From the NCBI GenBank assembly GCA_049968335.1, contig JBMFQZ010000013.1, positions 15,965-79,964 on the forward strand: DNA of 64,000 nucleotides. The letters run 5' to 3'. Origin of the DNA: Verrucomicrobiia bacterium. GTDB taxonomy: Bacteria > Verrucomicrobiota > Verrucomicrobiia > Limisphaerales > JAKPVM01. The notes beneath the pieces were generated by a model, which saw nothing but the letters and a program-made list of their open reading frames with translations, did not search any database and was not told the origin of the DNA. Positions 7,707 to 35,353 of the stretch are shown one piece after another; within the stretch, counting starts at the first letter, position 1; every line of letters starts with the position of its first letter. Both the position numbers and the translations under genes were made by a program.

Positions 7707-10700
7707 TCACTTGTTAATGTAAAATGCCTTCACAAGTTCATCAGGCGAAAGTCCGCACCTGTCGCGAACAAGCACGCCGTTTGCAAAGAACGCCTGGTCC
7801 TCCTTCAACACAAGTGAATAGACTGTTTGTTTATCTTTCAATTTAGAAACAGACCTTATAACCGTGTGCTTACCATCAGGCTTCATTAACCAATCGCCTG
7901 CTGTCAATTGGCGCGCAAGCGTCCACCCCTTGCCATCAACCCAAAACGCGTGATCGCCAGTTGCAATGACACTCTTCTGTTCCGACCCTTCGCTGCCAAA
8001 TTCAATCCTGTATAACTCATCGCTCGTTCGCTGGGTTACGAGTCTGACCTGCGCCTTTTCTTTCTCTGAATACCCTGTCCTCACCCAATCGCCTATCTTT
8101 ACCATCTGTATCGGTTTGGTCTTTCCATCCGCCATCAATACCGATGTCCCTTCCACAAAACAGACGGGACTGTAGAAACCATAACCTGAACCAGTTGAAT
8201 AACCGCCACCGCCACTGCCACTACCTGGACCTGTCAACTGTTGCGCAAGACAAGTAACAAGTCCCATTGCAAAACTGATAGGCCATGGCACGCTCGGACA
8301 GGGCGACGGCAAGAAACCTAACGGACTGAACCCGGGCGAACAGAATAGCGAATAGACTACAACAAGTCCTGCCGCCGCTTTTAACGCTCCTCGTAAATCG
8401 GCGCACTGTCCATCCCCGCTAAACCTTGCGGCGATCGTCGCGATATCTTGCAAAAATTGGGCTAACCCGACAAGTCCACCGGTTACACAATCTGCATAGT
8501 CTTTCCCATCAAACTTTGGTTTTGCCCCGCTTTTTGCGGCTACGTTAATCCTTGCCTGATTTGTTCCACCGATATAGACCGTCTGCAACGGTACCTCAAC
8601 CGATTCCTGCGGCAATAAGACAGGGATATAATCAATCAGCGGAACAAGTGTTGCATTGGGTAACTCAGTCCCTTCAATGATCACATCATTCAACTGCAAT
8701 AATCCGGCGTTTTTAACTATCGCGATTATCGTTGCCTCAAACCCAGGCGGCACGTTTTCATACTTCACCATCGGCGGCGTTACAACAAGCACAGGAACCG
8801 GAACGTGCGTTTCAAATGTCTGTTCAATCTTTATCTCGTATTTATCAGTAAACGGCACCGGCTCAACGGTAAAATTGACAGTAACAAGATTTCTGGACAG
8901 CCTGACGCTCACAAGTTGCGTCTGGTCAGGTTCAACCGTAACAGTCCCGCTCATCGGACTATGCCCGGGCGCAGTAACAAGATATGACCAGTCGCCTTCC
9001 TGAAGGTTTGTAATCGTGGTATATCCGTTTGCGTCGGTCGTAGAGGACAACTCTTGATTCAAAACCAGATTCTTTATTCTCACAGTCGCGTTCGGCACTG
9101 GGTAAGTTAAAATATTATCAACAAAGAACCTTACGTTCCCGCTCTTGCTTGATGTTACAAGGGTAAAGATGTTTATCTTGAATGTCCCCGTAAGATTCGT
9201 TCCACCGATGACGAGTGAGTCCTCGTGATATTCAAGTGATGTATCTTGCGGCGGCGCAGCCACAACCACGAATGTATTTGACCCACCAACTGGGATATCT
9301 GGAAGGTGAATCAAACCATCCTGCGCAATCGGAAGGTTAACTCTGACCCACCCAGTATTCGTGGGCGGTATTATATATGCGCCAGATAAATCGTTCATCC
9401 CCCGATTTACCACCGTTATTGAGCGGCTCTTGAAATCGCCCCTGTTAACGCTCATCTCAACATAACCAACAGCAGGATCAACAACAGATAACACCGGGAC
9501 TGCTGGCAATAACGTTACATTCCCAACAACAGTTGCCGATGCCCCTTCCCCAGACCTCACAATAAATTCAACTATTGCATTGTCCGGAGCATCCACCGCA
9601 GCGCCAAGGCTCATCTGTAGTGACCTCCTCTCCCTTGGACCCAAAACGAAATTCTCAGGTATCCCGACACTACCTGTTACAGTACTTATTGGCACACTAT
9701 TGGTACCCTCCATCCTATAAGCCCTGAATTCATAACCGAAATTGGACATCTGTTCATCACCCGGATTGACCAGTGTAACTGAGAAGTCTATAGAACCATT
9801 CTTTGACATCCGTATGTCAAATTGCTGCGGTGTCACATAAATTCGGTAAACCTTTATCTCCACTTGATTCAATACATCAAATATATCCGGATGCGCAGCC
9901 CAGATTTTTATCGCTCCGCTTAACCCCCTCTGCGGCTCATAAATAAACTGATAGTTTCCACTCTCATCAGTTACTACATCCTTGTAGAAACGATAACCCT
10001 GCGTGAAGAATCCGATCTTCAACGGCGAATTCGGTTTTGGTTGCCCGGTAGCGCGGTCAATTGCTTGACCGGTGATGGTCACGTTCTCGTTGTTTGCATA
10101 GAACTGTTTATCGGTATTCGCAGTACCATAATAAGGTGTCTGAATAAGCGCGCTAACAAGCGAACCAGTTAACGGTCCGGAAATCGTCTCGTCGCTTACA
10201 GCAATCTTGTTGTAAATCTTCTCAACAACCGCCTCAATATACGCTGCATTTGTCCCAAGCGATGCCGGTATCAAAACATTGCTAACCGTTATCAATTTGA
10301 ACGATTCTGACGGTATCCTAACAAACGCCCGTCCGTCCGGTGCCATCATAATTCCCGCAGGCATTCCACTGTATTGAACACGATTCACCTCCTGACCAAA
10401 CATATTCTTAACCGATATATACAAATCGCCCGGGTCATTCCCCTGATTCCTTGATAACACAACGTCAATAGGAACATCAGAACGATTGTAAATCTTCACA
10501 TCAAACGAAGCCAATCCACCACTAACCGGCTGTTCATTTGCAGACATCTCAATCATCACCCGCGATGGACGATAATTGTCAAAACTAAACGCTTTCTGGT
10601 ATGTGACAGTTGTTGCAGGATCTGGTGTTGCTTGAACCACTTTTACTAAAAATGCCTGTCCATATTGTTCCCGTGCCGATGGAAATACTACAAACCGCTC

Positions 10701-16700: not shown

Positions 16701-19700
16701 ATACCAGTCAACATCTCCAACCGTTCTGATATATCCCGCGACATTGCCAGAATAATTGCTGCCGTTTCTGACTAAACCTATTGCATTTGCCAACGCCAGC
16801 GAGTCGTTAGCTTCCTGTTCAATCTGTTGCGATTCGTCTGCAACTACCACTTTGATCCGATACTCTCCCTGATAACTGCTGTTTGCCGCAACCCTGATGT
16901 AATAAGTCCCATTACTTTGTATCGTCACAACCGCTGATTGACCAAGCCCGTTGTTGTCAGAATTGAATGAGGTTACTGTCCCGCCATCTACATTTTCCAA
17001 ACGAATTGACAACGATGAACTGGATGGATTGCCCGGGTTTTCAGTACACACAACAACCTTCTGACCGGCTTGCGCGTCAAAACTCCAGTAGTCAATATCG
17101 TTGCCAGTTCCAATCGTTCCCCGACAGAATCCCGACTTCAATCCCGCAATTGATTCAATAAACGTCACCGGCGTCGCCACGCTGGCTAAATCGTTTGACC
17201 TATTTTCAATCGTAAATCCATCAAGATTGGTTATTACAAAATAACGGGTAACAGGAATAACCTGGTTCAAATATTTGTCCCTCAAAAGCGTAGTGGTCGT
17301 TAGCCTGTAATTTCCCGGCTGCAGCGGTCCGTCAACAACCGTTAGCGTCAAATTCGTCCCGCCACTATATTGCGCTGGCACTAAGTTGTAATACTCATCG
17401 TCTGCAGTATCAAAAACACCGTCCAATCCAGCAGATTGAACCTTGAATCCGTTAAATGGATCATTCGGATACGGATCAACCACATCAATAAAACCATCGC
17501 CATCAGAATCGCTCCCGCTAAATTCAATCACCCCATATAAAGAAGAGTTATATGATAAATCATTCCATAAACCTGATGCCAGCATTTGAGCATAATCCTC
17601 GCCGCCGCTGTTGTTCGGCTCGCCTGTGTTCCAGTTTAAATAAGTTACCGGCTCTCCGCTGACCCACCTGAACGTCCCTTCCTGCAACTCATCCGTCAAT
17701 CCAATCCAGACCGCCGACGATTGCGCAAAATTGAGTCTCACAAACTCATTTTCAGCCGCGCTGTTTATTGTAACTAAATGCCCCCCGCGACTCATCGCAT
17801 AATACTCAGCATCAACCCACCTCATCGCCGAATCTGTTAATATATAATTATGCCCGCCAAAGGTCTTTAACCGGCTCAAAATATTGAACTCCGGATTCAA
17901 CTCCGAACTGAATCCTAATAAAATCCTGTCAACAACAGAGGTTGTCGCTAACCCGCCCGACGGCAACGAAGACGAAACAAGCGCCAGCGCCTGCGTCTTA
18001 ACCAGTTCAATATTTAACAAATACTGCGCGGCTATACCGTTTGGCCTATTATTTGTAACCGTCGTGCCTGCCCACAACGCGCCATTCAAAATCGTTCCGT
18101 TCGCCCCCGTTGGACTTGCATCGGTGAGAACCCGCCCCGCCCCCTCGTCAAACCGCCAGTAACCAACAAGCCCAGACTCCGTCCCGTTGAGCCTGTTGGT
18201 CATTGTCGCCTGTATTTCTCCCGCGCTCCTTGCAACATTCCAAACCCGCACCTCATCAATATTTCCATACCAGTACTCACCATATCCGCTATATTGTCTG
18301 CCAATGCGGAATTCTGTCGTCTGAGACGGGTTCGGGATTGCCGACCCCTTCACCGCCGCCAGAATACCGTTTGTATATAAATAAGTATTGGAAGCAGTCT
18401 TAACTACTGCAATATGAACCCATTGATACATCGGGAATAGCGCGGGCGTCGTTCCCCAGCCATCGCCAGCGCGAATATACTTATTATAATCGTAACCTAA
18501 ATAAAACGCGTTGCCGCCGCTCCCCTGTGAAATTACCTCTCTGTAATTAGAAGCGCTTTCCGCATACACCCATGCCTCTACCGTAAAATCGCCGCTTGAA
18601 GGTATAACACCGCTACCAAACGTCACATAATCATCAACCCCATCAAACCTTAATGAATATCCTGCCTGACCAGACAGGCTAATCGCCGGTACATTCCCTC
18701 CGTAGAACATCCTTATATAATAATTGCCATCCCCGCCTGCCGGCGCCGTCCAGCTCAAATTAGTTCTATCCAATGTATCAGAGGTCGCAATCAATGTCCC
18801 GCTTTGGTTATATAACTCAACTGCCCCGCCAAATCTCCCGTTAAACGGATATAACCAGTTCAAACTAATCGTTGTCCCAGATTCAACATTCGTTAATTTA
18901 TAAAAATCGCTTGTCTCGTAACTGCCGATATAACCGTAAACCTTCCCATTCAATTTTTGAGTCCCTTGATATAACGCAACCACGTTGGCTTCGCCTGCGC
19001 TATTATTATTTTCCAATTCTACTTGAATATTAGATGGAATTAGAGATACTCTGATTCTATATTCGCCGTAATAGTTATAATATCTACTTACTCTAATCGC
19101 ATATCTACCGCTTGAAGTTGCTGTTATCGTCGGTATCTGTCCAAAGCCAGAATAATCTGAATAATAATTATATATTACATTCCCTTCCGGGTTATATACC
19201 GAATAATATAGGCCGCTACTACCGATATTGTTAGGCGTCTCCATCGCAATTGAAATCTTGTCGCCACCGTTCGCGTAGAAACTCCAGAAATCTACATCAG
19301 ATGAATCCGATAACTTGCCGCGCCCCATACTTACTCTAATTCCGCTACCCAATTGGTCTTCAGTTATTAATCCAGTTATATTTCCAAGCAATATCCGCAG
19401 ATTATCTGTATAATAATCCGCTACCGCAATATCCATTGCGCCGTCATTATTAAAGTCTGCTACCGTTGCGGCTCTGCAATTCATTGAATAAGTCAAAATT
19501 GAGTTAAACTCGCCATTCCCAGTATTCTGCATAACTATTAATCTATTAACGCTATATTCTGGAACTATTATATCCTTTAATCCATCATTATTAACATCCG
19601 CAACTGTCAACCAGTATGTATTATTAAGTCCGGGCGAGTATGATTTCCTGGAACTAAATGTGCCGTCTCCCGCGCCTTTAAATATTTCAACAACACCATA

Positions 19701-22700
19701 CTGCGTGCTTACAACAACAATGTCCTTTATATTATCATTATCTATATCGTCAACAACCGCATAAATAGGCGACCTTCCCACCGCAATAAATGAAGGTCCT
19801 CCAAATGTCCCATCGCCATTCCCCAATCTAACCGCAATATTATTTGCGCTTTGATTAACGCTAATTAAGTCCAACTTACCATCGTTGTTTATATCCTTAA
19901 TCTCAACGCATCGTGTTCCGGTACCAGTTGTTATATCTCCTATTTTCAGGAATGTGCCATTCCCATTACCTTTAAACAGGCTAATATTTCCACCATTATA
20001 GTTTGCTGTAACTATGTCAAGCAGACCATCGTTATCAATGTCTCCAACCTTTACATCTAATGGAGACTGACCTGTTATATTAGTTGAATAAAAGTTAAAT
20101 GTCCCATCTCCATTGCCTGTTAATATATATAATTTACTATCATTATAATTAATCGCGGCGATTTCTAACTTATTATCTAAATTAAAGTCAGCTACCGCGC
20201 AACTTTGCAATGAATAACCAATCGAGTAATTTGTAAATAGATTAAATGTTCCATCCCCATTTCCCTTAAACAGATTCATATTGCCAGAATAACACGGCAT
20301 AATTACATCCATTTTGCCATCATTATTAAAATCGCCCTTGGCAATATAATTTGGCATATCGCTCGCTTGAATCACCCCGCCAAATGAGAATGATCCATCA
20401 CCGTTAGTCCTCGCAATCAATCCAAGCGGCGAAGCAGAAATTAACAAATTATTATTTCTCGTTTCATTAACATATCCGGGAACGCCGCTAACTGTAAAAT
20501 ACCTGACATAGTTTGTCCCTAATGTGTTATTCCCTGTATCGGCGAGATTTGAACTGACGATAAATCGGTAATTACCCGGTTGGAGCGGACCGTCCACTAT
20601 AGTATAGTTCGCTGTAAGTCCAGAAGTATAACCCGAATATACAGTATAAACCTCATCATCCGCTGTTCCGAACTGTAAATCCTGCCCAGCATTTCTTAAT
20701 TCATAATTTCCCGAATTTGTAACCGTTACAGGACCCATATCTTCCGAATACGATACAGTAAATGAGTTTATAATATCGGTTGTCGTCCCGTTGTTAGTTG
20801 GAAAACTGTCCCCGGTTATATATGGCGGTATTAAATCCGCAGTTTCTACATTTAACAAATATGAAGCATAAATGCCTGGCGCTTTGTAATTTTGCGGCGC
20901 TAACGCAATCCAGTATATCGTTCCATTTATATTGCCATTGAATCCATTAGTGCTTGAATCTAAAACCGTATTACCGCTTGATTGATTCATACTATAGTAC
21001 GCAACAAGACCATCTTCTACCCCAGCTAATGATTTAAACATATTTGACACTATTCCGTCTTGAGTTAATGACTTATTCCACAGCCTTACTTCAGCCATTA
21101 ACCCGTTAAATGATGAGGCATAGTTGCCTCTTCCAATCCTTAATACTTCATTATTGTCCACGTTTGCCGCAGCTTCACTATTAGTATTAATCCCTGCTAA
21201 ATTGCCATTAACATATAGATAGAATATTCCATTGCTTCTAACCCCCGCTATATGATACCAGTTACCCGGCGTAAGTAGTCCCGAAGTAACCGCTGAATTA
21301 CCGGATATTGTGCTATAAAAATTCACTTTAAACAATGGCTGTATATCCCCATAAGTGTTTATTTCAAGCGCCCAACCTGGATAATTCTGATAATAGGATT
21401 TGCTAAGAATTACATTAGCGCTATTCCCGCCCAGCGCTAATGGCGGCACATAAACTAACGTCTCAACACTAAAGTCATTAGTCCCAAAGTTCAATTTGCT
21501 ATTATTTGGCGTCGTTATTTGAGCGCCGTTGATGTTAATTCCATTCCTAAATGTATCAGTGAAACCATACTGTCCGCTCGCTACCCTCGCGTAAAATGTT
21601 GAATCTCCTCCGACAGGTATATTATAAACAATATTTGTTCCGGTAAGCGGTGAATTGGTCACAAGTTGTCCCGCCTGATTATATATTTCAAAGACTGATG
21701 GAAATCTATAATCTGCCGGCTGCAACAACTTCATCATAATAGATGAACCATACGATAGGTTGCCAATTCTATAATAATCACCCTCAGAATCATTGATATG
21801 TATAATTCCGCCAATATTTGCCACCCTCTTATTTCCGACTAAATTGAAATTAAGCGCGTTTGCCGAACTTATACTTCCATTATTCTCAGACTCAATCTGT
21901 ATATTTGATCCGTATTTAATTAAATTAAATCTGTATTCGCCTCTATAACTATAATTATAAGACACCCGCACATAATATCTACCACTAACTGGTAACACTG
22001 TAGCCAACTGTCCATATCCCCTATAATCTGTGTAAAACGAACTTATCTCATTGCCACTTGGATTAAGAATACTATATCTTAATCCAGAATTATATGGAGA
22101 ATTCGGATTTTCAGTTGCTATTATAACCTTTTCACCAGCAATTCCTTGGAAACTCCAGAAGTCTACATCATTGTTATCTACTAAATTGCCGCGCCCTATC
22201 ACGCTTGAATATCCCGGTGCAATACTACCAATAAGTATTGATTTATTACCAAACAGTATTGTTACACTATTCCTATAATAATTTGCAGTAGCAATGTCTG
22301 GTATTCCATCAGAGTTAAAATCGCCTACGCAAACACTTATGTCATCCGGATCGTTCGGTATACTATACACACTCTTACCCTCAAAACCACCCCCTGCCTT
22401 CCCAAGCATCACCACCACACTATCATATTGATATGTCGGCACTACTATATCTAACCTCCCATCACCATTCAAATCCGTTAGCATAAACTGAAACGCATTG
22501 TGCAAACTATCCCCATAACTGTTCGCACCACTAAACCCTCCTAACCCGTCTCCATAAAATACCTTAATCGTCCAGTTGCTCGCATCCAGCGCCACTATAT
22601 CTAACTTCCCATCCCCATTCACATCCCCTAACCTCACAAATATACAATTCCCACCTACACTCACACCCCCACCATCACTAAACCCGCCCACACCATCCCC

Positions 22701-25700
22701 TATCAATACCTTAACAGTCTGACTATAATACCCAGCAACCGCTAAATCCACCTTCCCATCACCGTTCACATCCCCATAAGCAACACTCTCTGCTCCATCA
22801 TTGGCTCCTACATTAACCCTGTTCGTAAAATTACCATCACCAACCCCATACCATACCGTAACATTATCCCCATTATAATTCGCTGTCACTATATCTAACT
22901 TCCCATCCCCATTCACATCCACTATCTCCACCCAGTACGGATTATTGCCAACACTAAAATTCACAGCATTGCTAAATACCCCATCGCCTCCATTTATAAA
23001 TACACTCACACTGTGCGAATAATAATTCGCCACCACTATGTCGTTCTTATTATCTCCATTCAAATCCGCTACCCCAACAGATACAGGCCCATCCCCAGCT
23101 GCATAGTTCGTCAATCCCCCAAACGCCCCATCCCCATTGCCAAATAATATGCTTATATTGTCAGAGGTATGATTTGCTGTTACTATGTCAAGATTAGTAT
23201 CAGAATTAATCCTCGCCGTTGCTATTGATTGGGGCTTTGAACCAACACTAAACGTACCCCCTATCGTTAACGACCCATCACTAATGTTTGTAACAATGCC
23301 AAGTGGCGTCGCGCCAGTTGTAGAATCGTTATTCCTTGTTTCATTGACCATTCCCCCAATACCTATTATAGTGAAATATTTAACGTAGTTAGTTGATAAT
23401 GGATTTAAGAACTTATCTTGAATATTTGTTTTTATTATAAATCTGTACTGTCCAGGCTGCAATGGTCCATCAGGAATTGAATAATTTACTGTTAATCCTG
23501 CTGTATATCCAAGTGGATTAACAGTGTAAATTTCATCATCAGATGTATCATATATTCCATCTACTCCTGGAGTGCGTAAATCATAGTTCGTAATATTATT
23601 TATTACTACAGAATTCATATCTTCAGAATAAGTAACTGAAAATAGCGATATAATATCCGACGAACTTGTTACTGGTAATGAATCGGTGATTATTTGTGGA
23701 GATTTGGAATCATTTATATCAACATTGATTATATATTGCGCAGTTAAACCGATAGCCTGAATACCATTAATCTCACGTATTCTGACTGGCGAACCATTAA
23801 AGGTTCCATTTTTAGCATTTATACTTGAGTCATAAGCAATACTACCTGCAATCTCATCAAACTTCCAGTAACCTATCAGTCCGTTCTCGTCCGCCGCTAT
23901 TTGTGGTTCCCTATTTGTGGCATAATTCATTATCTCTGTATAACTCAAGACTCTATTCCACAATCTTACATTATCAATCGCTCCCGGGAATCTATTTTCC
24001 GAACAACATGGCTCTCCTCTAATCCAGAAATCATCATACGGCGTATAATTAACCTCAACCGGTCCTGCCGCTTTCAGAACGCCATTTATATATAAAAATG
24101 CGTTCGTGCCATCGCACATAGCTAATAAGTGTACCCATTCTCCGACGACCGCAGGAGCATCGTTTGTATAAGTTACTGAACACCCACCCGGAGGACGAAC
24201 CATTACGCCGTAATAACCATCCTGCATCGTAATCCCCCAGTCTTTGCAATTCGCTGCGCTGCCCGCAATCGACTTTCTACCTGATGTCAGATAACTCGGT
24301 TTCGCCCAGGCTTCAACACTCCATTTACTCCCAACTGATACTGAACCGACACGAACATAACCATAATTATTATCAAAGTATAAGTACCCCCTCAATCCAT
24401 CCACCTGCCCTGCTCTTACTCTCGCATAATAATAACCATTGCTTCCTTGCGGGATTGTGTAAGTTAAATTTGTAGCCCCATTAGTTGACGCGGCAACCAG
24501 TGTCCCGCTTGAATTATAAATTTCAAATACTCCGTTTAATAAACTAAAATCAGGCTTTGAATATAATAAATTGATGGTAGTTCCAGAATCCTGATACCCT
24601 AACTTATAAAAATCTCCGCTATCATCATAATAATGTATAAATCCTAAGATATTGCCCTTCAAATGTTGCAATGTTGGTTCAAGATAGATTGTATTCGCAT
24701 TATTAATATCGTTATTAGCTTCTGATTCAATCGTAAGTGGCTGCCTTGCCAGTAAAACACTTATTCTATATTCGCCTCTATAATCGTAATTAGATGATAC
24801 CCGCACATAATATGTTCCGCTTACAGTTATATTAATTGGACCTGATTGTCCCCATCCACGATAATCTGAATAAAAATAAGTTATCCTGTTACCGGCTGGA
24901 TCATAGATTTGATAAAATAGTCCGCTATTTTCAGGATTATTTAACGTCTCAACAGCAACAATTACTACATCCCCCTGCTGCGCGCTAAAACTGTAGTAAT
25001 CGTTATCATTGTTATCATATAAACGACCTCTGCCAAAATAACTTTTAACACCGCTCCCTTCTGGATTTTCCACGACATATTTTCTTGAATTACCAGTCAA
25101 AATCGTTACGCTATTTTTATAATAATTTGCAGTAGCAATGTCTGGTATTCCATCAGAGTTAAAATCGCCTACGCAAACACTTATGTCATCCGGATCGTTC
25201 GGTATACTATACACACTCTTGCCCTCAAATCCTCCCCCAGCCTTCCCAAGCATCACCACCACACTATCATAAGAATATGTCGGCACTACTATATCTAACC
25301 TCCCATCACCATTCAAATCCGTTAGCATAAACTGAAACGCATTGTGCAAACTATCCCCATAACTGTTCGCACCACTAAACCCTCCTAACCCGTCTCCATA
25401 AAATACCTTAATCGTCCAGTTGCTCGCATCCAGCGCCACTATATCTAACTTCCCATCCCCATTCACATCCCCTAACCTCACAAATATACAATTCCCACCT
25501 ACACTCACACCCCCACCATCACTAAACCCGCCCACACCATCCCCTATCAATACCTTAACAGTCTGACTATAATACCCAGCAACCGCTAAATCCACCTTCC
25601 CATCACCGTTCACATCCCCATAAGCAACACTCTCTGCTCCATCATTGGCTCCTACATTAACCCTGTTCGTAAAATTACCATCACCAACCCCATACCATAC

Positions 25701-28217
25701 CGTAACATTATCCCCATTATAATTCGCTGTCACTATATCTAACTTCCCATCCCCATTCACATCCACTATCTCCACCCAGTACGGATTATTGCCAACACTA
25801 AAATTCACAGCATTGCTAAATACCCCATCGCCTCCATTTATAAATACACTCACACTGTGCGAATAATAATTCGCCACCACTATGTCGTTCTTATTATCTC
25901 CATTCAAATCCGCTACCCCCACAGATACAGGCCCATCCCCAGCTGCATAGTTCGTCAATCCCCCAAACGCCCCATCCCCATTGCCAAATAATATGCTTAT
26001 ATTGTCAGAGGTATGATTTGCTGTTACTATGTCAAGATTAGTATCAGAATTAATCTTTGCCGCTACAATTGAGTACGGATTTGACCCAACAGCAAAAGTC
26101 CCTCCAGTAGTTAACGAACCATCAGCAATATTAGTAACAATACCCAACGGCGTCGCAGTAGAAAAGGCGCCATTATCTTCAAGTTCATTAACCCACCCTG
26201 CCCCTGCGAGCGAAACAACTGAAAAGTTCCTTGTAAAAATAGAACTCAATCTATTGCCAACAAGGTCTATTATGTTCGTGCCAATTTTAAAAACATACGC
26301 GGCAGGTTTTAGCGGACCGTTAATAATACCCAATGTAATATTTGTTCCTCCGGAAACACTTGCCACCTGTAAATTATAAATTCTGGAACCATCGACAGTT
26401 TGCAAAGCATAGTTCGCAAGATTAGTCAACTGACCCGTTTGAATCTGCTCTGAAAAAACAACAGTTATACTATAAATTAAATCCTGAGTTGAGCCCCCAT
26501 CTGATGGGAGGGAAATTGATTTTACCACCGGCGGTGTAGCGTCGTTGATTGTGATATCAAGATGATATTGATTGCGAATCCCAATATTCGTTGAATTCAC
26601 TCGTAAATAATAACCTCCATCGGACATCACTACATAATATAAATTGCCACTATAATTTGTTTCTACCGCAATACCACTATCCTTCTCTAATATCATTATA
26701 ATATCATTCTTCGCCATCTCGCTCCCAGTCGGAACCGCAGCATTCACGCTAATTGAATTCCCAGAATTCAAAACAAACAACCGATAATAGTCGCCGGCTG
26801 TGTCATCCCTGCCTAAAACGCCCGCAACTTTTGCGCTATAATTTTGCGCTACATTCGTAAATGCAAGTTGAGTTGCTTGCCCCTGCGTGTTGTTCGGTTC
26901 AATCTCAAGTTGCGTTATCCTGCCAATGTCAAATCGTAAATAATATTGCGCCTTTCCGCCCGGGCTCCTTACCTTAACATAATAATCTCCAGTCTGAGTG
27001 ATAGAATAATTCTGAATCGCGGCATAACCTGAATTGCCTGTTGCGGATGTAAGCGATTGATTGAGGGAATTTTGCAGCTCTATAGAGACCGAAACACTTG
27101 CCCCATATGGCAATGTATCAAGCCATAGCGTTAATCTGTCGCCAGCCTGCGCTGAAAAAAGCCAGTAATCAATATCATTCGTTGAACTAAACACGCCGAT
27201 GCCTGTTGCGGTTAAAAATCCGCTCCCCGAAGGGCTTTCTGATGGCGTAACTACTGTGGCAAGGTTAGGACCATCATTGTTAAGCGCGTTTTCAAGTATC
27301 CCATTAACCGGATTTATAATATAGAAAGCGGTTTGAAACTCGGCTACAGGATTTGAGTTTGTATCAAGCAGGGTCGGTTTTGTTTTGAAGCGGTAATGTC
27401 CCGGTTGTAAAGGCGAAGGGGTGATATCAATGAAAATTCCGCGTGGCTGGAGCTGTATCGGCGACGGAGTAAGCGTGTAAACCACATCGTCCGAATCGCC
27501 AAAGATCCCATTTCCGCCATCGCTCCGTAGTTCAAAATTTGCCGGCTCCGCCGCAGACAATGCTAAAAACGAGTTATTTCCATAGAGATATATTGTGCTA
27601 ATCGCAACGGCGTTTGTAGAATTTTGCGCTGGCAATGAAGAAGCGGCAATATAAGTCTGGGCGCTGGATTTAAAGACCGCAACATTATCAATCCCCCAGG
27701 ACTCATTGTCAATTGATTCAAGGTTCTGTCCTTGAAAAGTAATTGTGGCTGAGTTAGTTAAGGCAGTAAATGAAACAGTAATGTATCTGTAAATTGCATC
27801 GTTGTATGAATTAAATCCAAAATTGCCAGTTTGAGTTGGTGTACCTGGAAATGTCTGGCTGCCGCCAAAATTGTTAAATGTGTAATGAAAGATTTGATTG
27901 CCATTAACATTAATGTTTAAATAATCGCTTGAGCCGCCATCCCACGAGTCAATGGCGTAAAAATCAAAGGCGATAGTGTAATTATCCCCGGCGGTGAGAT
28001 TCGTCAATGCTAATGAAATAGCGTTATTGCCATTCCGGCCGGCGAACCTGGTGAATATGGCAGGATAACTACTATCAATAGATAGACCGCTCCATTCTTC
28101 AAATACGCCCGACTCAAAATCGGTGTAATAGGGAGTTGTTGACGGCGTTTGTTGGGCAGCAAATCCGAGCCAGGGGGTAAAAATTGCTGCCAATAGAAAG
28201 GCTGTGGTCTTGTTCAT
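7707..28217 (-). CDS. Giant secreted mosaic surface protein (6,836 aa) with a C-terminal Hint domain
   Basis: Uninterrupted 20,511-nt ORF with an N-terminal signal peptide. Motif-level domain series: jelly-roll ([10 protein letters not shown]). Then three units of Ig-like + FG-GAP/VCBS propeller + 2 PPC + LamG, followed by a C-type lectin. Then PPC x2, CARDB x2, InlB-B-like repeats, FN3 x2, a parallel beta-helix, Ig/FN3 series and many CARDB-like sandwiches. It finishes with a CarboxypepD_reg-like domain, a Cys-rich hydrophobic segment, a Gly-rich linker and a Hint domain. Confidence 0.85.
   Translation of the reverse strand: [6836 protein letters not shown]
7758..8162 (-). other. Hint (Hedgehog/intein-like, BIL-type) autoprocessing domain, 135 aa, followed by only 16 residues
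   Basis: [27 protein letters not shown] (block A with Cys1 at 8160-8162), ATGDHAFWV (TxxH block B) and [22 protein letters not shown] (blocks F/G). The usual terminal His-Asn is Arg-Asp here. It is preceded by the linker [23 protein letters not shown]. Confidence 0.8.
8900..9110 (-). other. Carboxypeptidase-regulatory-like (CarboxypepD_reg) beta-sandwich
   Basis: [57 protein letters not shown]. Confidence 0.6.
10915..11690 (-). other. Three consecutive fibronectin type III-like modules
   Basis: [33 protein letters not shown]..., [23 protein letters not shown]...FRIYRN..., and ...[19 protein letters not shown]... Confidence 0.65.
13490..14060 (-). other. Right-handed parallel beta-helix region
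   Basis: Successive short turns: [77 protein letters not shown]. The region ends in NWWGS. Confidence 0.5.
14075..14665 (-). other. Two fibronectin type III-like modules
   Basis: [24 protein letters not shown]...FRVYIS...[13 protein letters not shown] and [23 protein letters not shown]...FRLYYE...[13 protein letters not shown]. Confidence 0.7.
15000..15700 (-). other. Four InlB-B-repeat-like (Listeria-Bacteroides type) repeats
   Basis: [83 protein letters not shown], and [24 protein letters not shown]...YRFKEFK. Confidence 0.55.
15730..16440 (-). other. Two CARDB-like modules
   Basis: [35 protein letters not shown]... and [32 protein letters not shown]... Confidence 0.6.
17520..17865 (-). 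other. Animal-type C-type lectin domain with intact EPN / WND sugar-calcium motifs
   Basis: [27 protein letters not shown]...[54 protein letters not shown]. EPN is near 17613-17621 and WND near 17559-17567. The domain is followed by the Asp-rich [17 protein letters not shown]. Confidence 0.8.
18190..18665 (-). other. LamG / concanavalin-A-like lectin domain (copy 3)
   Basis: [16 protein letters not shown]...FTVEAWVY...WVHIAVV...LYTNGIL...[16 protein letters not shown]. Confidence 0.75.
19390..20440 (-). other. FG-GAP/VCBS repeat beta-propeller (copy 3, divergent)
   Basis: [95 protein letters not shown], each followed by a GNGDGTF-type turn. Confidence 0.8.
21040..21550 (-). other. LamG / concanavalin-A-like lectin domain (copy 2)
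   Basis: [11 protein letters not shown]...[21 protein letters not shown]...[16 protein letters not shown]. Confidence 0.7.
22275..23211 (-). repeat. Near-identical internal repeat, copy B (FG-GAP/VCBS propeller 2)
   Basis: Aligns without indels to 25119-26055 at a constant offset of 2,844 bp. About 8 differences are visible in ~937 nt, and only one in the last ~790 nt. Confidence 0.9.
23900..24400 (-). other. LamG / concanavalin-A-like lectin domain (copy 1)
   Basis: [14 protein letters not shown]...WSVEAWAKP...[21 protein letters not shown]...[16 protein letters not shown]. Confidence 0.7.
25119..26055 (-). repeat. Near-identical internal repeat, copy A (FG-GAP/VCBS propeller 1)
   Basis: Encodes [30 protein letters not shown]...[17 protein letters not shown]. 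It matches copy B over 312 aa except for one residue (S versus Q in PTYSYDS / PTYQYDS). Confidence 0.9.
28158..28217 (-). other. Sec-type signal peptide of the giant protein
   Basis: [20 protein letters not shown] followed by AQQTP. Confidence 0.6.
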
Positions 28218-28347
28218 AAAATTGTCTGGGTTCTATGTCGGCAAATAGATTTGCGCTTAACACGATGCTCTGGAATCATTGCAATATTCACTTGCTGACT
28301 TTTATTTCATCTGCTCGTGTTAGTAAGCTTCTTGATTCCATTACCGA

Positions 28348-28375
28348 GTGTACAAATAATGAACAAAATGTCAAG
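28348..28375 (-). promoter_or_regulatory. Candidate sigma70-like promoter for the giant gene
   Basis: The minus strand reads TTGACA-16 nt-TACACT, about 130 nt upstream of the ATG at 28217. Confidence 0.3.
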
Positions 28376-28409
28376 AATATTTTAAAATAATTTTGCAATG
28401 CGCAGTATT

Positions 28410-28439
28410 TTGACATCGTTTTTTCAAGCGCGATATGAT
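28410..28439 (+). promoter_or_regulatory. Candidate sigma70-like promoter for pgi
   Basis: TTGACA (28410-28415), an 18-nt spacer, then TATGAT (28434-28439). It overlaps the ATG at 28435 listed by the ORF track, which argues for a downstream pgi start. Confidence 0.35.
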
Positions 28440-28521
28440 TAGCAATAAATTTGCCTTTATTTATTTGTCCCTATTATTAAAATCTAATAGATATAATGTG
28501 GATTTTTTAACTGTAATAATA

Positions 28522-30180
28522 ATGGAGAAAACGCGTATGACAAGAGAACAACTATTCAAACGGTTTCAAACGTTTTATTTGCAAAATGATAGAATCGGTC
28601 TCAGTCTGGATGTTAGCCGGATGAATTTTTCTGATGAAGTATTGAGTAAAATTAATAGAAAAACCGAGCGGGCAATTAAATTTATGGCGCAACTTGAAAA
28701 AGGCGCCATCGCAAATCCCTCAGAAAATCGTATGGTAGGCCATTACTGGCTAAGAAATCCGCGCCTTGCGCCTGAGCGCGCTATCAGCGAAGAAATTCTC
28801 TCTACCATAGATAAAATTAAAAAGTTTACCGCTAAAATTCATAATGGTGAGATTTTGAGTTCAAACGGTAAAAAATTCACTAACATACTTATAATCGGTA
28901 TCGGCGGCTCAATACTCGGACCGCAATTTGTTTCTCGCGCCCTTGGCAATCCATTAACCGATAAAATGAAGGTCTATTTTATTGACAATACTGATCCAGA
29001 CGGTATTGACACTACTTTACAATATATTGATAATCAATTAGATACAACGCTATGCATCGTTATTTCTAAATCCGGAAAGACGATCGAAACCCGCAACGGA
29101 ATGTTAGAAGTTGAACATCGCTTTAATTCAAAAAATATCCCGTTTCCGAAACACTCCGTCGCAATCACCCAGATGGTCGAGGAAAAAAGCAAACTGTATG
29201 AAAAGGCAAAGAACGAGGGATGGCTTGAGATATTCCCGATGTGGGACTGGGTTGGGGGAAGGACAAGCGAAACCTCGGCGGTTGGACTTTTACCAGCTGC
29301 ATTGCAAGGTTTTGATATTGATAAACTGCTTGAAGGGGCAAGCCTCTGCGATGAATGGACCCGAACAAAAGAGGTGCGAAAAAATCCATCAGCGCTGCTC
29401 GCGATGATGTGGTGGTACGCAGGGAAGGGCAAAGGCGAGAAAAATATGGTTATTCTTCCATACAAAGACAGATTAGAACTATTCTCGCGATATTTGCAAC
29501 AGCTTGTGATGGAATCACTTGGAAAAGAATTTGACCTGGATGGCAAACAAGTTAATCAGGGCATTACAGTCTACGGAAATAAAGGGTCAACCGACCAGCA
29601 CGCCTATATTCAGCAACTGCGGGACGGCAGAAACGACTTCTTTGTAACCTTTATTGAAGTTCTTAAAGACAGAGAAGGCGAGGAATTTTTCGTTGAACCG
29701 GATGTCACAAGCGGCGATTATCTGCTCGGCTTCTATTTAGGAACCCGCCGCGCATTGTACGAAAAAGAGCGGGAGTCGATGACTATAACGTTAACGGAAG
29801 TCTCTCCACTTACAATTGGCGCCTTAATCGCCCTATTTGAACGCGCCGTTGGCTTATATGCGCATATCATTAACATAAACGCTTATGACCAACCGGGAGT
29901 TGAAGCAGGAAAAGTTGCCGCAGGTGAAATTATTGACTTACAAAAGCGGATCCTCAAATTCTTAACAGAGCATCCGGAAAAAGCTTACGCGCCAATTGAG
30001 ATCGCGCAGAATATAATATCGCAAAAAGAGATTGAATCAGGATTAAAGCCAGAAGACCTGCAAGAAGATATATACAAGATTTGCGACCATCTTTCGGCAA
30101 ATCCAAAACGCGGGATTGAAAAGATAGCCTCCGCAGTGTTGAATGCCACAGCATTCAGATATTTGCCGAGGATTGAATAG
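28522..30180 (+). CDS. pgi: Glucose-6-phosphate isomerase
   Basis: Typical PGI blocks: MVGHYWLRNP, IGIGGSILGPQ, VISKSGKTIETR, VGGRTSETSAVGL and GSTDQHAYIQQLRDG. The start was moved to the ATG at 28522 (MEKTRMTREQ); the ATG at 28537 is also possible. The 29-codon extension in the ORF track looks non-coding. Confidence 0.9.
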   Translation: MEKTRMTREQLFKRFQTFYLQNDRIGLSLDVSRMNFSDEVLSKINRKTERAIKFMAQLEKGAIANPSENRMVGHYWLRNPRLAPERAISEEILSTIDKIKKFTAKIHNGEILSSNGKKFTNILIIGIGGSILGPQFVSRALGNPLTDKMKVYFIDNTDPDGIDTTLQYIDNQLDTTLCIVISKSGKTIETRNGMLEVEHRFNSKNIPFPKHSVAITQMVEEKSKLYEKAKNEGWLEIFPMWDWVGGRTSETSAVGLLPAALQGFDIDKLLEGASLCDEWTRTKEVRKNPSALLAMMWWYAGKGKGEKNMVILPYKDRLELFSRYLQQLVMESLGKEFDLDGKQVNQGITVYGNKGSTDQHAYIQQLRDGRNDFFVTFIEVLKDREGEEFFVEPDVTSGDYLLGFYLGTRRALYEKERESMTITLTEVSPLTIGALIALFERAVGLYAHIININAYDQPGVEAGKVAAGEIIDLQKRILKFLTEHPEKAYAPIEIAQNIISQKEIESGLKPEDLQEDIYKICDHLSANPKRGIEKIASAVLNATAFRYLPRIE

Positions 30181-30211
30181 ACTACTGTTTAAAAAAGTTT
30201 ATTTTTAAATG

Positions 30212-30261
30212 AAGCGGTGGCGAAGACTGATGTAGCAGTCGCGGCACCGCTTTGTGATTTT
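30212..30261 (+). terminator. Hairpin plus T-rich tail downstream of pgi; also member A (inverted orientation) of the TCACAAAGCGGTG hairpin repeat family
   Basis: AAGCGGTG...GACTG-ATGTAG-CAGTC...CACCGCTT followed by TGTGATTTT, 32 nt after the pgi stop. Confidence 0.5.
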
Positions 30262-30364
30262 AGTTATTATAAAAACGAATAAATAAAGCCAAAACTAAAA
30301 AATTGTCATTAGTTTTGACTTGGCATTTTTATTCTAAAACTATGTGGCATTGCTAAAATGATAT

Positions 30365-30392
30365 AGACCCCGAAGGGGGCTGTTTTATGTTT
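30365..30392 (+). terminator. Short GC hairpin with U-tract (possible 3' end of a small transcript)
   Basis: AGACCCC-GAAG-GGGGCT followed by GTTTTATGTTT. There is no annotated + strand gene directly upstream other than pgi, which already has a hairpin. Confidence 0.3.
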
Positions 30393-30511
30393 AAAATAAT
30401 CTCACAAATTCAATTTAAAATGCTAATGATTCGGGCAGAAACAGAGGTGAATTAAAACAGTAGACAGATAGGAATTTATTAGTATATTTACTGCTATTAA
30501 TTAACGGTTGT

Positions 30512-32473
30512 TTGATGTTCATTTATCCAAAAAATTACGATGTTATTGTTGTAGGCGGCGGACACGCGGGGATTGAAGCGGCTGTAGCAGCGGCGCGGAT
30601 TGGGTGTCAGACGTTGTTATTGACAATCAATCTGGACACCATCGGGCAGATGTCGTGCAACCCGTCTATCGGAGGGCTTGCCAAAGGTCATCTTGCCAGA
30701 GAGATTGACGCAATGGGCGGCGCAATGGGAATGGCTACCGATATGACCGGGCTGCATTTCAGGATGTTGAATACAAAGAAAGGTCCATCGGTCTGGGCTC
30801 CCCGGGCGCAATGCGACAAAAAGGCATATCAGTTTTATATGAAATGGCTGTTAGAACGGCAGCCAAATTTAGACCTCAAACAGGGTTTGGTAGAAACAAT
30901 ACTGGTTAAGAATGAAAAGGTTTACGGGGTTGAAACTAATCTCGGGATTCAATACCACGGGAAGACAGTAATTGTAACCACCGGGACATTTTTAAGGGGG
31001 TTGATCCACATTGGATTTAACCGCGTTGAAGGGGGCAGGGCAGGGGAGGCGGCGGCGGTCGGTTTATCCGGCTCATTGAAGAAGATAGGGCTTGAACTCG
31101 GGAGGTTAAAGACAGGAACGCCGCCAAGACTCTTGCGGAGCACGATTGATTTTAGCAAAACAACCGTTCAGCCAGGAGATGAGCCAGTCCCCTACTTTAC
31201 TTACTGGAAGGATGATTTGTTCCACGTGGAACAAAATGGGTCAAATCCAAAGTTTCATAGTTGTTCAAATGGCAAATATCCCCCCGGCTCAATCCTTGAC
31301 CGTATTAACGGTCAGGCAAACTGTTACATTACATATACAACTCAAAAAACAGCAGAGATTATCCGCTCCAACTTAGATAAATCGCCGCTCTATTCCGGTG
31401 TAATTCAAGGTGTTGGGCCAAGATATTGCCCGTCAATTGAAGATAAAATCGTCAAGTTCCCGCATAAAGAACGACAACAACTCTTCCTTGAACCAGAAGG
31501 CATTACCACTGAAGAAATCTATGTAAATGGATTCTCTACAAGCCTGCCTTATGAAGTGCAAATCCAGATGGTTCGCTCAATTGTCGGTTGTGAAAATGCC
31601 GAAATTATGCGACCGGCTTACGCCATTGAATACGATTTTGCCTATCCGACGCAACTTTACCCCTCGCTTGAAACCAAAGTCTGCGAAAATCTTTACCTTG
31701 CCGGGCAGATAAACGGCACCTCCGGCTACGAAGAAGCTGGCGCTCAAGGTATGATAGCAGCCATCAATGCCGCGCTCAAACTTAAAGGAAAAGAACCAAT
31801 CCTCATTGGTAGAGACCAGGCATATATTGGCGTATTGATTGATGACCTCGTAACTAAAGGGACAATAGAACCATACCGTATGTTCACCTCTCGCGCCGAA
31901 TATCGTCTCCTTCTGCGGCAAGACAACGCAGACCTCCGTCTCTCTGAAATCGGGTACAATGTCGGACTTCTCCCTTATCGACATTATCAAAAAGTAGTCC
32001 AAAAACGAGAGGCTATATCAAGAGAACTTGAACGGCTTAAAAAAACCCGTTACGGCACAGATACACTTGAACAAATCTTGCGACGCCCCGAAGTCAAATA
32101 TTCAGACCTTCCTTACAAAGATGAGACTTTAGACCCGGAAGTTGTCAGGCAGGTTGAGATTGAGGTTAAATACGCAGGTTATATAGATAGGCTTGAAAAT
32201 GAAATAGAACGTTTCAGATCGTTAGAGAATAAACAGATACCGGACAATTTTGATTATTCAAAAGTCCCGAGCCTGCGGAGCGAGGCGCGCCAGAAACTTT
32301 CAAAAATCAGACCAGCAACTATCGGCCAAGCATCCCGTATCTCCGGCGTCTCACCCGCCGATATAAGTATCCTACTCGTCTGGCTCCGTAAATCCGCCGA
32401 ACAGGTATCCCAACCCTCAGATGTTGAAGACGATGCCTATGAAGCGGCTAAAGAAAACGACGATGAGGAATAG
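30512..32473 (+). CDS. mnmG: tRNA uridine 5-carboxymethylaminomethyl modification enzyme MnmG (GidA)
   Basis: YDVIVVGGGHAGIEAA FAD-binding start, then SCNPSIGG, KGHLAREIDALGG-like, GPRYCPSIEDK and QINGTSGYEEAGAQG. The start is TTG 30512 or ATG 30515. Confidence 0.95.
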   Translation: MMFIYPKNYDVIVVGGGHAGIEAAVAAARIGCQTLLLTINLDTIGQMSCNPSIGGLAKGHLAREIDAMGGAMGMATDMTGLHFRMLNTKKGPSVWAPRAQCDKKAYQFYMKWLLERQPNLDLKQGLVETILVKNEKVYGVETNLGIQYHGKTVIVTTGTFLRGLIHIGFNRVEGGRAGEAAAVGLSGSLKKIGLELGRLKTGTPPRLLRSTIDFSKTTVQPGDEPVPYFTYWKDDLFHVEQNGSNPKFHSCSNGKYPPGSILDRINGQANCYITYTTQKTAEIIRSNLDKSPLYSGVIQGVGPRYCPSIEDKIVKFPHKERQQLFLEPEGITTEEIYVNGFSTSLPYEVQIQMVRSIVGCENAEIMRPAYAIEYDFAYPTQLYPSLETKVCENLYLAGQINGTSGYEEAGAQGMIAAINAALKLKGKEPILIGRDQAYIGVLIDDLVTKGTIEPYRMFTSRAEYRLLLRQDNADLRLSEIGYNVGLLPYRHYQKVVQKREAISRELERLKKTRYGTDTLEQILRRPEVKYSDLPYKDETLDPEVVRQVEIEVKYAGYIDRLENEIERFRSLENKQIPDNFDYSKVPSLRSEARQKLSKIRPATIGQASRISGVSPADISILLVWLRKSAEQVSQPSDVEDDAYEAAKENDDEE

Positions 32474-32562
32474 CCCCGATAGCGCTCTCCTTTTCTATTG
32501 TCTGCCATCGCGCAATGAAAATCTTGCTAACGAGTGAAGTTTCCACCCCTTGTTGGATTGCT

Positions 32563-33612
32563 TCAATCTGTCAAAAGCCGCGGCAAATCTTCCTGCCAGG
32601 TTACCTGAACAAACGATAGATACCATGTTTTCCCTCTGTCGTTGTTGCCTTGATAGAACAGGTAAGTTTTGCCATCAGAATCGGCAAAAATGAATGGATG
32701 CCCGGACTCGCTCGCATTCCAATTGTTGGGTTTGCCCGCAGGTAAAAATGGCTTATCAGAAAGCCTCTTGAAGTTCACCCCATCGTCGCTTGGTGCCACG
32801 CCAATCTGCTGTGGCTCGTTATTATAACCGCCGGCGTAGAACATAAAAAATCGCCCGTCTCTATAAATAACAGCCGGCGCCTCAATGCAATTTCTCTCCC
32901 AGTCAAGTTCAGGTTTAAGAATTGGCTTGTTGCAGAGTTGTTTCCAGCAATCGCGCGAGAAATCTGAATTAACATCCGCAGTTGCCACACCTAACATCTG
33001 AATTTTAAACGATGGGTCTCGCGTAGCAAAATAGAGAAATAACCTGTCGCTGCAACGGACAATATCCGCGTCAATAGCCCGTCCGCAATTCCAGTCCCCG
33101 CTCGGGCGGAAGACCGGGTTTGAAGGATTTTTGATGAAATTTACGCCGTCCTCAGACCACGCATAGCATATCGCGTCGTTCCTGCCATTGCCATAAGTCT
33201 GGTAAAAAATGTGGACGCGATTGCCAAGAACAATCGCGCCAAGCGCGCAAATCCCGTTTTTCTCGCATTCCTGTGTGGCATCAATCTCGCCAATTTTTTC
33301 CCATACAACCAGACGATCGCTCCTTGCAATCCCTATTCTCCATCCCTGTATATTCCTGCCTGGCGGTATTGAATAATACAAAAGATACTGATTTTTAAAC
33401 CTGACAACAGCAGGGTCTTTTGCAAACGGACGGTTCAGCCGCGAGGTATCTCCGAACATCATTACCTTTTTTGATACAAACGATGAGACATTCGTATAGT
33501 CAATTCCTGAAAGGTCAAAAAATGCCACTCCTGTAACTAAACAAACAATATGGTAAAAATATTTCATAATTAAGAATACGAGATTTTGGCGATGATTGGT
33601 TTTAAAAATCAA
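32563..33612 (-). CDS. Five-bladed beta-propeller glycoside hydrolase-like protein (GH43/GH130-type fold; family not resolved)
   Basis: Repeated blade signatures: KDPAVVRFKNQYLLYYS, GIARSDRLVVWEK, EAPAVIYRDGRFFMFYAG, GVAPSDDGVNFKR, GHPFIFADSDGKTYLFYQG. Confidence 0.5.
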   Translation of the reverse strand: MIFKTNHRQNLVFLIMKYFYHIVCLVTGVAFFDLSGIDYTNVSSFVSKKVMMFGDTSRLNRPFAKDPAVVRFKNQYLLYYSIPPGRNIQGWRIGIARSDRLVVWEKIGEIDATQECEKNGICALGAIVLGNRVHIFYQTYGNGRNDAICYAWSEDGVNFIKNPSNPVFRPSGDWNCGRAIDADIVRCSDRLFLYFATRDPSFKIQMLGVATADVNSDFSRDCWKQLCNKPILKPELDWERNCIEAPAVIYRDGRFFMFYAGGYNNEPQQIGVAPSDDGVNFKRLSDKPFLPAGKPNNWNASESGHPFIFADSDGKTYLFYQGNNDRGKTWYLSFVQVTWQEDLPRLLTD

Positions 33613-33877
33613 GATGAAATGCTGTATATTTGTATCTTATTGATATCCAACTTCTTATATATTTATACACGCCGGTGTAAATATGATTTTGAAACCGGGT
33701 GAAATAGAATGCTATTATTTAACGGTCGCAATATTATAGAATTACGCTCACTTGTTGCCTCTCTATGTATCTCTGGGGTTTGGCTTTTTACCACAAAGGG
33801 CACAGAGAAAAGCAATTTTGATTGACCGCTTTGGAGTCACATAGATTTTACATTCTTCACTTTTTTGTTTTTTAACC

Positions 33878-33926
33878 TCACAAAGCGGTGTCGCGACCGC
33901 TCTCCGCGGTCTTGCCATCGCAGGCC
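33878..33926 (+). repeat. Member B of the TCACAAAGCGGTG hairpin repeat family
   Basis: TCACAAAGCGGTGTCGCGACCGCTCTCCGCGGTCTTGCCATCGCAGGCC, with inner stem GACCGC/GCGGTC. Confidence 0.6.
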
Positions 33927-34056
33927 AAAAAATGTTTGCTTCGTTGTTTGTGAACGATTAGGGGTTAATAAAACCAAAATCTTCCGTGACGCTCTTTCTG
34001 TCAAAATGTCTAATTAGTAAAGGAGAGTCCTAAGAAAACAACAGAAACACCGCAGA

Positions 34057-34909
34057 ATGGCAAAAAGAGCCAATTAACGATCCTATTTAAGGCTATATTA
34101 ATATTTGTTGTTTGCGTTGTTGCCTTGTGGGGAATTGCAACACTGATAGAAAATCACCGAGGGAATGTATCGGGGGCTATGAACTCAGGAGAATCTATCC
34201 GAATTTCAATCGCTTGCTGGAAATCTAAATCTGCTGGCGGATTTAGTGAAAACTTATCCAGCGAATTTTTCGTTAGTAATTAATATGGCAGAACAAGACC
34301 GTGTTAAAAACCCGGGTTTAATAGTTATGGCGTTAACATCAATGCCAGACCTTTACAGCCCTGCCGCGTTCTGTCCATCTTCCGCAGAAAACTTTGAGGT
34401 CTTTATCTTAAAAATCATCCCGCACGGCTGGTATTATAAAAACTATGTCAATTACTGTGATTATTTATATAAAGTGATGAGAGAAGGTTTTGACATTAAA
34501 AACAACCGTCTGTTTACATCAAAAATAACCTCTGTGACAGACCATCTAATGAGCGAGAAAATTCTTCTATTCAATCTGTTTCCCAAAATCTACAATCAGC
34601 GAAAAACCGTTTCCTCAATTGCCTTTCGCCAGACTCTTATTAATTGCTACAGAGTCGCCTGCGGTATTGAAAAATATCGTATTATAAACAAACATATTCC
34701 GGAGCAATTAGATAGCCTTGTTCCCGAATTCATTGACAGCATTCCGCTGGATATAATTGACGGAAAACCGCTTCGTTACAAGGCTGAGAAAACTGGGGAT
34801 TATACAAATTTATTCTATTGGCTGAGATGAAAAAGACAACGGCGGCAAACCATCAAAACCTCCTTTAGACAAGAATTGTGACTGGAGGCTTGCGATAAGA
34901 TGGCATTAG
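34057..34909 (+). pseudogene. Decayed gene for a membrane-anchored protein (at least 3 frameshifts plus one in-frame TGA)
   Basis: Coding pieces step through frames. MAKRAN* starts at 34057. QLTILFKAILIFVVCVVALWGIATLIENHRGN... follows in the next frame (to 34283). Then comes the 194-aa track ORF 34246-34830 (...GIEKYRIINKHIPEQLDSLVPEFIDSIPLDIIDGKPLRYKAEKTGDY). The last piece is IYSIG-TGA-DEKDNGGKPS...DWRLAIRWH* (34802-34909). The frame shifts sit next to homopolymer runs. Confidence 0.45.
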
Positions 34910-35353
34910 ATTTTATCAGGGGCGATGAGAATGAACCTAATTCTTAACAAACTGGAGAAAATCGCGTCGCGAGGCAATACTGGTAAAAGAGACAAAACCC
35001 TAAGCATTGCCCTTCCTAAACAATTTCCGCAAATCTAATTGGACCCGAGAATTATCATTTTCTAAAACGCTAAAGTTTCAGGTTAAAGTTTAATTGGAGG
35101 GTTGTTTTCATTTATAATCCGAAATAGACGCGCTTGATAAAGTTATCAATTTCTGGATTTTGTGGTATATTTTTGTTAGTTGATGTTGTAAGGGTTACGA
35201 TTCGACGCGGGCGGCGGGTGAATAAACCGCATGCCTGTTTAGTCAAATCTGTTGAGAACAGTTTCTGACGCTGATGAGAGAATGGCGGAGACCTGCGGAA
35301 GGTTTCCTAAAATGAAGGGTGGCTCACCGGCAGAAACATAACAAAAAAATATT

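Follow-up and report, generated by a model that had tools for sequence, protein, structure and literature searches.

The locus described here raises the question of how two internal segments of a single gene can be almost identical at the DNA level while the homologous sequences that surround them have diverged widely. All coordinates below are positions in the window, the whole 64,000-nt stretch of DNA that was analysed. The gene lies at 7707-28217 on the minus strand, a correction to the earlier reading, and encodes a giant protein of 6,836 aa, as defined by the open reading frame list, the translation, and Pfam scans. The protein begins with a signal-like peptide and contains three units of ~948 residues each, in which an Ig domain, a seven-blade FG-GAP propeller, PPC domains, and a LamG domain follow one another (Big_5 Ig-like, FG-GAP, PPC, and Laminin_G_3 in Pfam terms). 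On the 3' side of the units, Pfam places C-type lectin, CARDB, InlB-B-like, fn3, and Ig domains, and finally a C-terminal Hint domain. The Hint domain (7707-8300) ends the protein with nothing after it; PT-HINT scores 27.5 bits there, just below the 27.7-bit cut-off, and the same region also gives Hom_end_hint and Intein_splicing hits.

Self-BLAST and a three-unit alignment, with HMM segmentation for the first two units, delimit unit 1 at 23706-26549 (aa 557-1504), unit 2 at 20832-23705 (aa 1505-2462), and unit 3 at 18006-20831 (aa 2463-3404), all on the minus strand. A much more divergent third unit had been recognized in the first-pass annotation at about 18190-21000; the unit stands but its coordinates do not. 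Its propeller core shares 36% amino-acid and 50% nucleotide identity with those of units 1 and 2. At the DNA level, the unit-2 and unit-3 Ig domains (23322-23705 and 20448-20831) are 59% identical, with at most 75% amino-acid identity in any 20-codon window, while the unit-1 Ig is only 44-47% identical in DNA to that of either unit 2 or unit 3. In their Ig domains, units 2 and 3 are thus closer to each other than to unit 1, so that the units are mosaics with per-domain histories.

The near-identical segments fall in the propellers of units 1 and 2. Judged by its repeats and calcium-loop motifs, this domain is predicted to be a seven-blade FG-GAP/VCBS propeller. Pfam FG-GAP_3 matches 19 stretches across the three propellers (E = 7.8e-133), FG-GAP hits are found too, and each propeller has seven blades of ~49 residues, with canonical D-x-N-x-D-G-x-x-D loops in six of them, spaced 49-51 residues apart, and one degenerate loop. 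The same features characterize integrin-alpha-type FG-GAP/VCBS propellers, a likeness that is limited to the fold of this one domain. A blade period of 147-150 bp is detectable in the DNA, and two blades of one propeller (22593-22637 and 22887-22931) are 91% identical over 45 nt, as is likewise seen in the other copy; this may reflect a small conversion between blades or a strongly conserved calcium-loop motif.

An exact recount aligns 22275-23211, the unit-2 copy (aa 1670-1981), with 25119-26055, the unit-1 copy (aa 722-1033), both on the minus strand, without gaps and at an offset of 2,844 bp (948 codons). The tract begins at the loop of blade 1 and continues to the final strand of blade 7, and 929 of its 937 bases are identical. 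The eight differences lie at 22377, 22386, 22389, 22395, 22428-22430, and 23076 in the unit-2 copy; they comprise four synonymous changes, one whole codon (TCT Ser in unit 1, CAA Gln in unit 2), and one further synonymous change, leaving the two propeller cores a single residue apart. Seven of them are confined to a 54-bp patch (22377-22430, counterpart 25221-25274, minus strand) that is bounded by perfect identity over 102 bp toward the 3' border and over 645 bp toward the 5' border, the latter being the longest perfect run between the copies; the eighth, 23076, lies outside the patch. The first-pass annotation had described 937 bp at a constant 2,844-bp offset with about eight differences, four synonymous ones and a Ser/Gln codon being clustered and a single change occurring elsewhere, and the recount agrees on each point. 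It had also claimed that identity is elevated relative to the flanks, as the same-offset identity outside the tract, 0.22-0.38 per 100 bp on both sides, bears out. When units 1 and 2 are aligned by codon, mismatches number 8/936 in the core against 918/1,818 in the flanks (Fisher p = 7e-198; binomial log10 P ~ -267). The 3.76-Mb, 91-contig genome contains only these two copies of the tract. The number of units, the phasing of the eight differences, and the exact identity of the copies are as given by this draft assembly, in which a few further differences could perhaps have been smoothed away.

The two ends of the tract differ in character. Beyond the 3' border, a two-codon indel separates the units and all DNA similarity is lost, so that the abrupt boundary claimed earlier for both ends holds at this one. 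It does not hold at the 5' border, where the core is continued by a shoulder of 37 codons (26056-26165 in unit 1, aa 685-721; 23212-23321 in unit 2; minus strand) with ~70% DNA identity between the units, compared with ~50% in the rest of the flanks, and a third-position identity near 0.5. The two copies are separated by segment B (23212-25118, minus strand), which comprises the PPC and LamG domains of unit 1 and the Ig domain and shoulder of unit 2; the flank peptides quoted in the first-pass annotation are present in the translation.

Three independent contigs from related lineages, referred to as L015, L096, and L097, were compared with the window. L015 is a 10.6-kb JGI metagenome contig that shows 0 differences from the window over 26995-31084 and 24 over 27000-35746. 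Over 25112-26994, however, it carries 272 differences without indels (~85% identity). This divergent stretch covers the N-terminal PPC and the Ig, shoulder, and core of unit 1, with dS of 0.49-0.63 and omega of 0.1-0.15, and the contig ends at 25112, just 7 nt after the repeat's 3' border. That end beside the border is circumstantial as a sign that the strain carries the repeat as well. The sudden drop inside the giant gene from 99.7% identity over 8.7 kb to ~85%, with its strain-level mosaic breakpoint at 26994-26995, suggests either the exchange of a divergent allele segment between near-identical strains or a chimeric contig.

L096 (MAG GCA_049969835.1, 1,884 bp) holds only the inter-core segment, starting within the unit-1 core, 56 nt before that core ends, and reaching the unit-2 shoulder, and L097 (MAG GCA_049699275.1, contig JBNAXR010000088.1, 5,558 bp) contains two cores; where the two contigs overlap, they are 99.7-99.9% identical. 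Between positions 1-1839 and 2769-4607 of L097 there are 7 differing sites, each located in the final 150 bases, after which similarity falls to background; the second copy matches the first 1,688 bases of the contig at 100%. The offset between the copies, 2,768 bp, is not divisible by 3, and relative to L096 76 nt are missing at the junction. This gap sits between two ACCTAT words (L097:2760-2800), shifting the frame and splitting the gene call, and the first bases of the contig (1-40) are exactly the sequence that follows the junction. The gap and this start together make a misassembly at the repeat unit likely; since 2,768 + 76 = 2,844, the true period of the L096/L097 lineage equals that of the window. 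The 99.3% identity between the L097 copies may come in part from a collapsed or looped assembly path.

Core and flank have opposite affinities in these sequences. Within a genome the cores are nearly identical, at 99.1% between units 1 and 2 of the window and 99.3% between copies a and b of the possibly part-collapsed L097, whereas between lineages they share only 74.5% (window and L097) or 85% (window and L015). The flanks behave in the opposite way, with 62-85% identity in orthologue pairs and 47-53% in paralogue pairs. In the post-core PPC flank, unit 1 of the window is 79.6% identical to L097a and unit 2 is 61.9% identical to L097b, against ~50% for all paralogue pairs; in the Ig flank, window unit 2 is 75% identical to L097/L096 and window unit 1 is 85% identical to L015, against 47% for paralogues. 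Maximum-likelihood DNA trees are in direct conflict accordingly: the core sequences group by genome (support 100/99 and 96/94), whereas the post-core flanks group by position (100/99 for both clades). The peptides just after the 3' border are also position-specific, SRK/PRK in unit 1 and KSI/KSL in unit 2. The 3' border itself is common to the window and L097 within about 17-20 nt, the L097 tract running further. In the shoulder, paralogue identity (69%) is level with the nominal orthologue identity (68-81%), so that the related lineages lack positional orthology there; at the 34 sites that differ between the two shoulders of the window, L015 matches unit 1 at 19 and unit 2 at 12. The shoulder is therefore read as an older conversion tract that reached further in the 5' direction. 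The clustering of differences near the 3' border, 100-155 bp before it in the window and 32-150 bp before it in L097, suggests overlapping tracts with different ends.

This combination of near-identical cores and independent flanks is the pattern that textbooks give for concerted evolution through gene conversion, here in one domain, and the identity pattern and the conflict between core and flank trees are observed directly. As far as sequence can tell, the locus displays an excess of identity within genomes, flanks that follow position, and homogenization of synonymous sites. We regard the 937-bp near-identity as very probably a gene-conversion tract, formed recurrently and limited to the propeller core. 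The first-pass annotation had favoured intragenic conversion of the propeller core over an old duplication, a choice in keeping with the synonymous divergence, the comparison with unit 3, and the core and flank trees. Its reading is refined in one respect: a single recent event does not fit, as conversion appears to have recurred while lineages diverged by 15-25%.

Other explanations of the near-identity must be weighed against recurrent conversion. Strong purifying selection on protein or DNA might have held anciently duplicated cores identical without recombination, and just one residue (Ser/Gln) separates the two propellers, as it would predict. Yet the synonymous sites are identical as well: between units 1 and 2, the core has a dS of 0.027 and a dN of 0.003, whereas the flanks have a saturated pS of 0.73-0.76 and 29-45% amino-acid identity, and third-codon-position identity is 1.0 in the core against ~0.35 in the flanks. 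Homogenized synonymous sites in the core beside saturated ones in the flanks, again a direct observation, mean that selection at the protein level is no explanation. Nor is constraint, since relative to unit 3 the core (36% amino-acid identity) is conserved no more than the flanks (32-45%), and the core diverges freely between lineages, with a dS of 0.63 and an omega of 0.12 against L015. A hidden gene on the opposite strand was also considered as a cause and rejected, as no long open frame crosses the tract on that strand (the longest has 82 codons). Purifying selection therefore has next to no chance of being the correct account. A single very recent conversion or partial duplication in this genome, with no ongoing concerted evolution, would suffice for the window alone, in which there are only 8 differences to explain, and most distant homologues are without homogenization. 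It is nevertheless unlikely. Near-identical cores recur in the L096/L097 lineage, 25% diverged, where they end within ~18 nt of the same 3' border, which speaks for events repeated over long periods; the L015 allele, with its core dS of 0.63, ends 7 nt from that border, and the shoulder and the clustered differences point to tracts of different ages.

An artefact of assembly, in which one collapsed propeller was threaded twice or a graph loop was traversed so that the true divergence or unit count differs, is conceivable in a 91-contig draft genome. The 645-bp perfect run exceeds any assembler word, and the related contigs break (L015, L096) or misjoin (L097) at the repeat. Cores as different as the flanks (~50%), on the other hand, would share no assembler words and could not collapse. 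The two copies also have 8 private differences, each is joined to its own in-frame, part-diverged shoulder and its own downstream flank, the 6,836-aa frame is intact, and the period of 2,844 bp recurs in another lineage when L096 and L097 are combined. An artefact might change the unit count or mask a few additional differences but could not create the near-identity, and we consider it a shade less probable still than a single event. The assembly hazard that the first-pass annotation had foreseen is nonetheless real, as L015 stops 7 nt past the repeat, L096 comprises the inter-copy stretch only, and L097 has a frame-breaking join. These three public contigs show that genes of this family are broken or misjoined at the repeat in draft assemblies, and for such giant proteins neither the unit count nor the domain sequences are therefore trustworthy without long reads.

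Recurrent conversion remains the preferred reading, and a mechanism for it can be outlined. Homologous recombination between repeat copies is a general means by which such sequences become alike. The recombination mechanism, the rate of its recurrence, and any selective benefit of identical propellers are inferences. Recombination, presumably RecA-dependent, would take place between the cores of neighbouring paralogous units, one core being copied onto the other with the flanks left unexchanged. Each copy has retained its flanks and the frame is open across all 6,836 aa, so that the transfer was non-reciprocal; had unequal crossing-over acted alone, the unit number would differ. Repeated events of this kind would let the unit-1 and unit-2 cores evolve in concert, ~99% identical within a genome and 15-25% apart between lineages, while the Ig, PPC, and LamG domains around them evolve independently and keep their positional orthology. 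The tract stops at the end of the propeller, beyond which there is no usable DNA similarity and an indel intervenes; loss of similarity together with the two-codon indel may be what halts tracts at the 3' limit. The 5' limit probably varied over time, leaving the older, part-decayed shoulder. The last conversion is much younger than the split of the L015 allele, as the core dS of 0.027 between units 1 and 2 is more than 20-fold below the dS of 0.63 between the window and L015.

It is doubtful, if somewhat less so than the accounts set aside above, that the propellers are kept identical by selection as a matched pair of binding sites or that the repeats serve as a built-in switch among two-, three-, and four-unit forms. 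If the matched pair were real, any new allele, for instance the 15%-divergent one carried by a strain otherwise 99.7% identical, would need to be copied to both positions. As a side effect of conversion, the gene contains direct repeats with 645 bp of perfect identity spaced 2,844 bp (948 codons) apart, and a crossover between the copies would delete or duplicate segment B plus one core. Such repeats also disrupt short-read assemblies. The offset is a multiple of 3, so a 948-aa unit could in principle be gained or lost in frame; no such variant is seen in the sequences compared, among which there is no complete gene from a close strain.

Gene conversion among the repeats of surface-protein genes, in bacteria and archaea, is well documented, and concerted evolution by gene conversion has been treated for prokaryotes in general (Wang & Chen 2018, PMC6053082). 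Like the known cases, the present one shows paralogues within a genome that are closer than orthologues, limitation to a tract, homogenized synonymous sites, and independent flanks. It differs from them in that homogenization affects a single domain type, the seven-blade propeller, within a five-domain unit of 948 aa, only two of the three units take part, and the 3' limit is common to lineages 25% apart. Periscope proteins (SasG/Aap, Rib/alpha C, and Sgo_0707 SHIRT arrays) offer a second comparison, as their tandemly adjacent, highly similar domains form a rod, their repeat number varies between strains, and the high DNA identity of their repeats has been proposed to enable intragenic recombination and in-frame length change (Whelan et al. 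2021, PMC8201768). The giant gene resembles them in the high DNA identity between its repeats, here 929/937 bases, but its two identical domains do not form a tandem array, as 636 residues of diverged sequence (Ig, PPC, and LamG) lie between them, and nothing in it suggests a rod. On the structure predicted from its sequence, it is not a Periscope protein. The locus, from an uncultured Verrucomicrobial lineage, is a clean and quantified instance of concerted evolution that affects a single domain within a multi-domain repeat and has a tract border common across lineages; it is a clear but ordinary case that leaves the known picture of surface-protein gene evolution unchanged.

Both the source of the homogenized core and further close relatives were sought. 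With L015 as the outgroup, the eight differences conflict over the source: unit 1 looks ancestral at the four synonymous sites, unit 2 at site 23076. A third genomic copy as the donor of the 7-difference patch was rejected, as the genome has only two copies. Among contigs of other genomes, a degenerate 27-nt core pattern gave only a chance match. A metagenome scan with the core protein returned generic FG-GAP proteins (best identity 41%) and no close relative; such proteins also dominated a further protein search, cluster look-ups yielded singletons, and these searches found no complete gene from a close strain. The best full-length homologues, 35-41% identical, come from Verrucomicrobiota MAGs and Fontisphaera persica. 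Distant homologues contain between two and four propeller units, a range that has no bearing on switching at the strain level, and ~25 of them keep the three-unit architecture. A tree built from 78 propellers of 26 homologues has clades by position in most species, and the propellers of the window lie on a long unresolved branch that does not indicate the source copy. Clustering of propellers within a protein is restricted to the window and a few others (P0022, P0006, P0004). The conserved architecture and the mostly positional orthology of the propellers imply that the units are old, their triplication being ancient, and that homogenization is limited to certain lineages. Three giant FG-GAP homologues (P0006, P0022, and P0020) are built from 732-aa Ig + propeller + PPC units and have much longer internal near-identical repeats, for instance 869 aa at 99.8% in P0006; in these proteins, homogenization or recent duplication spans whole units.
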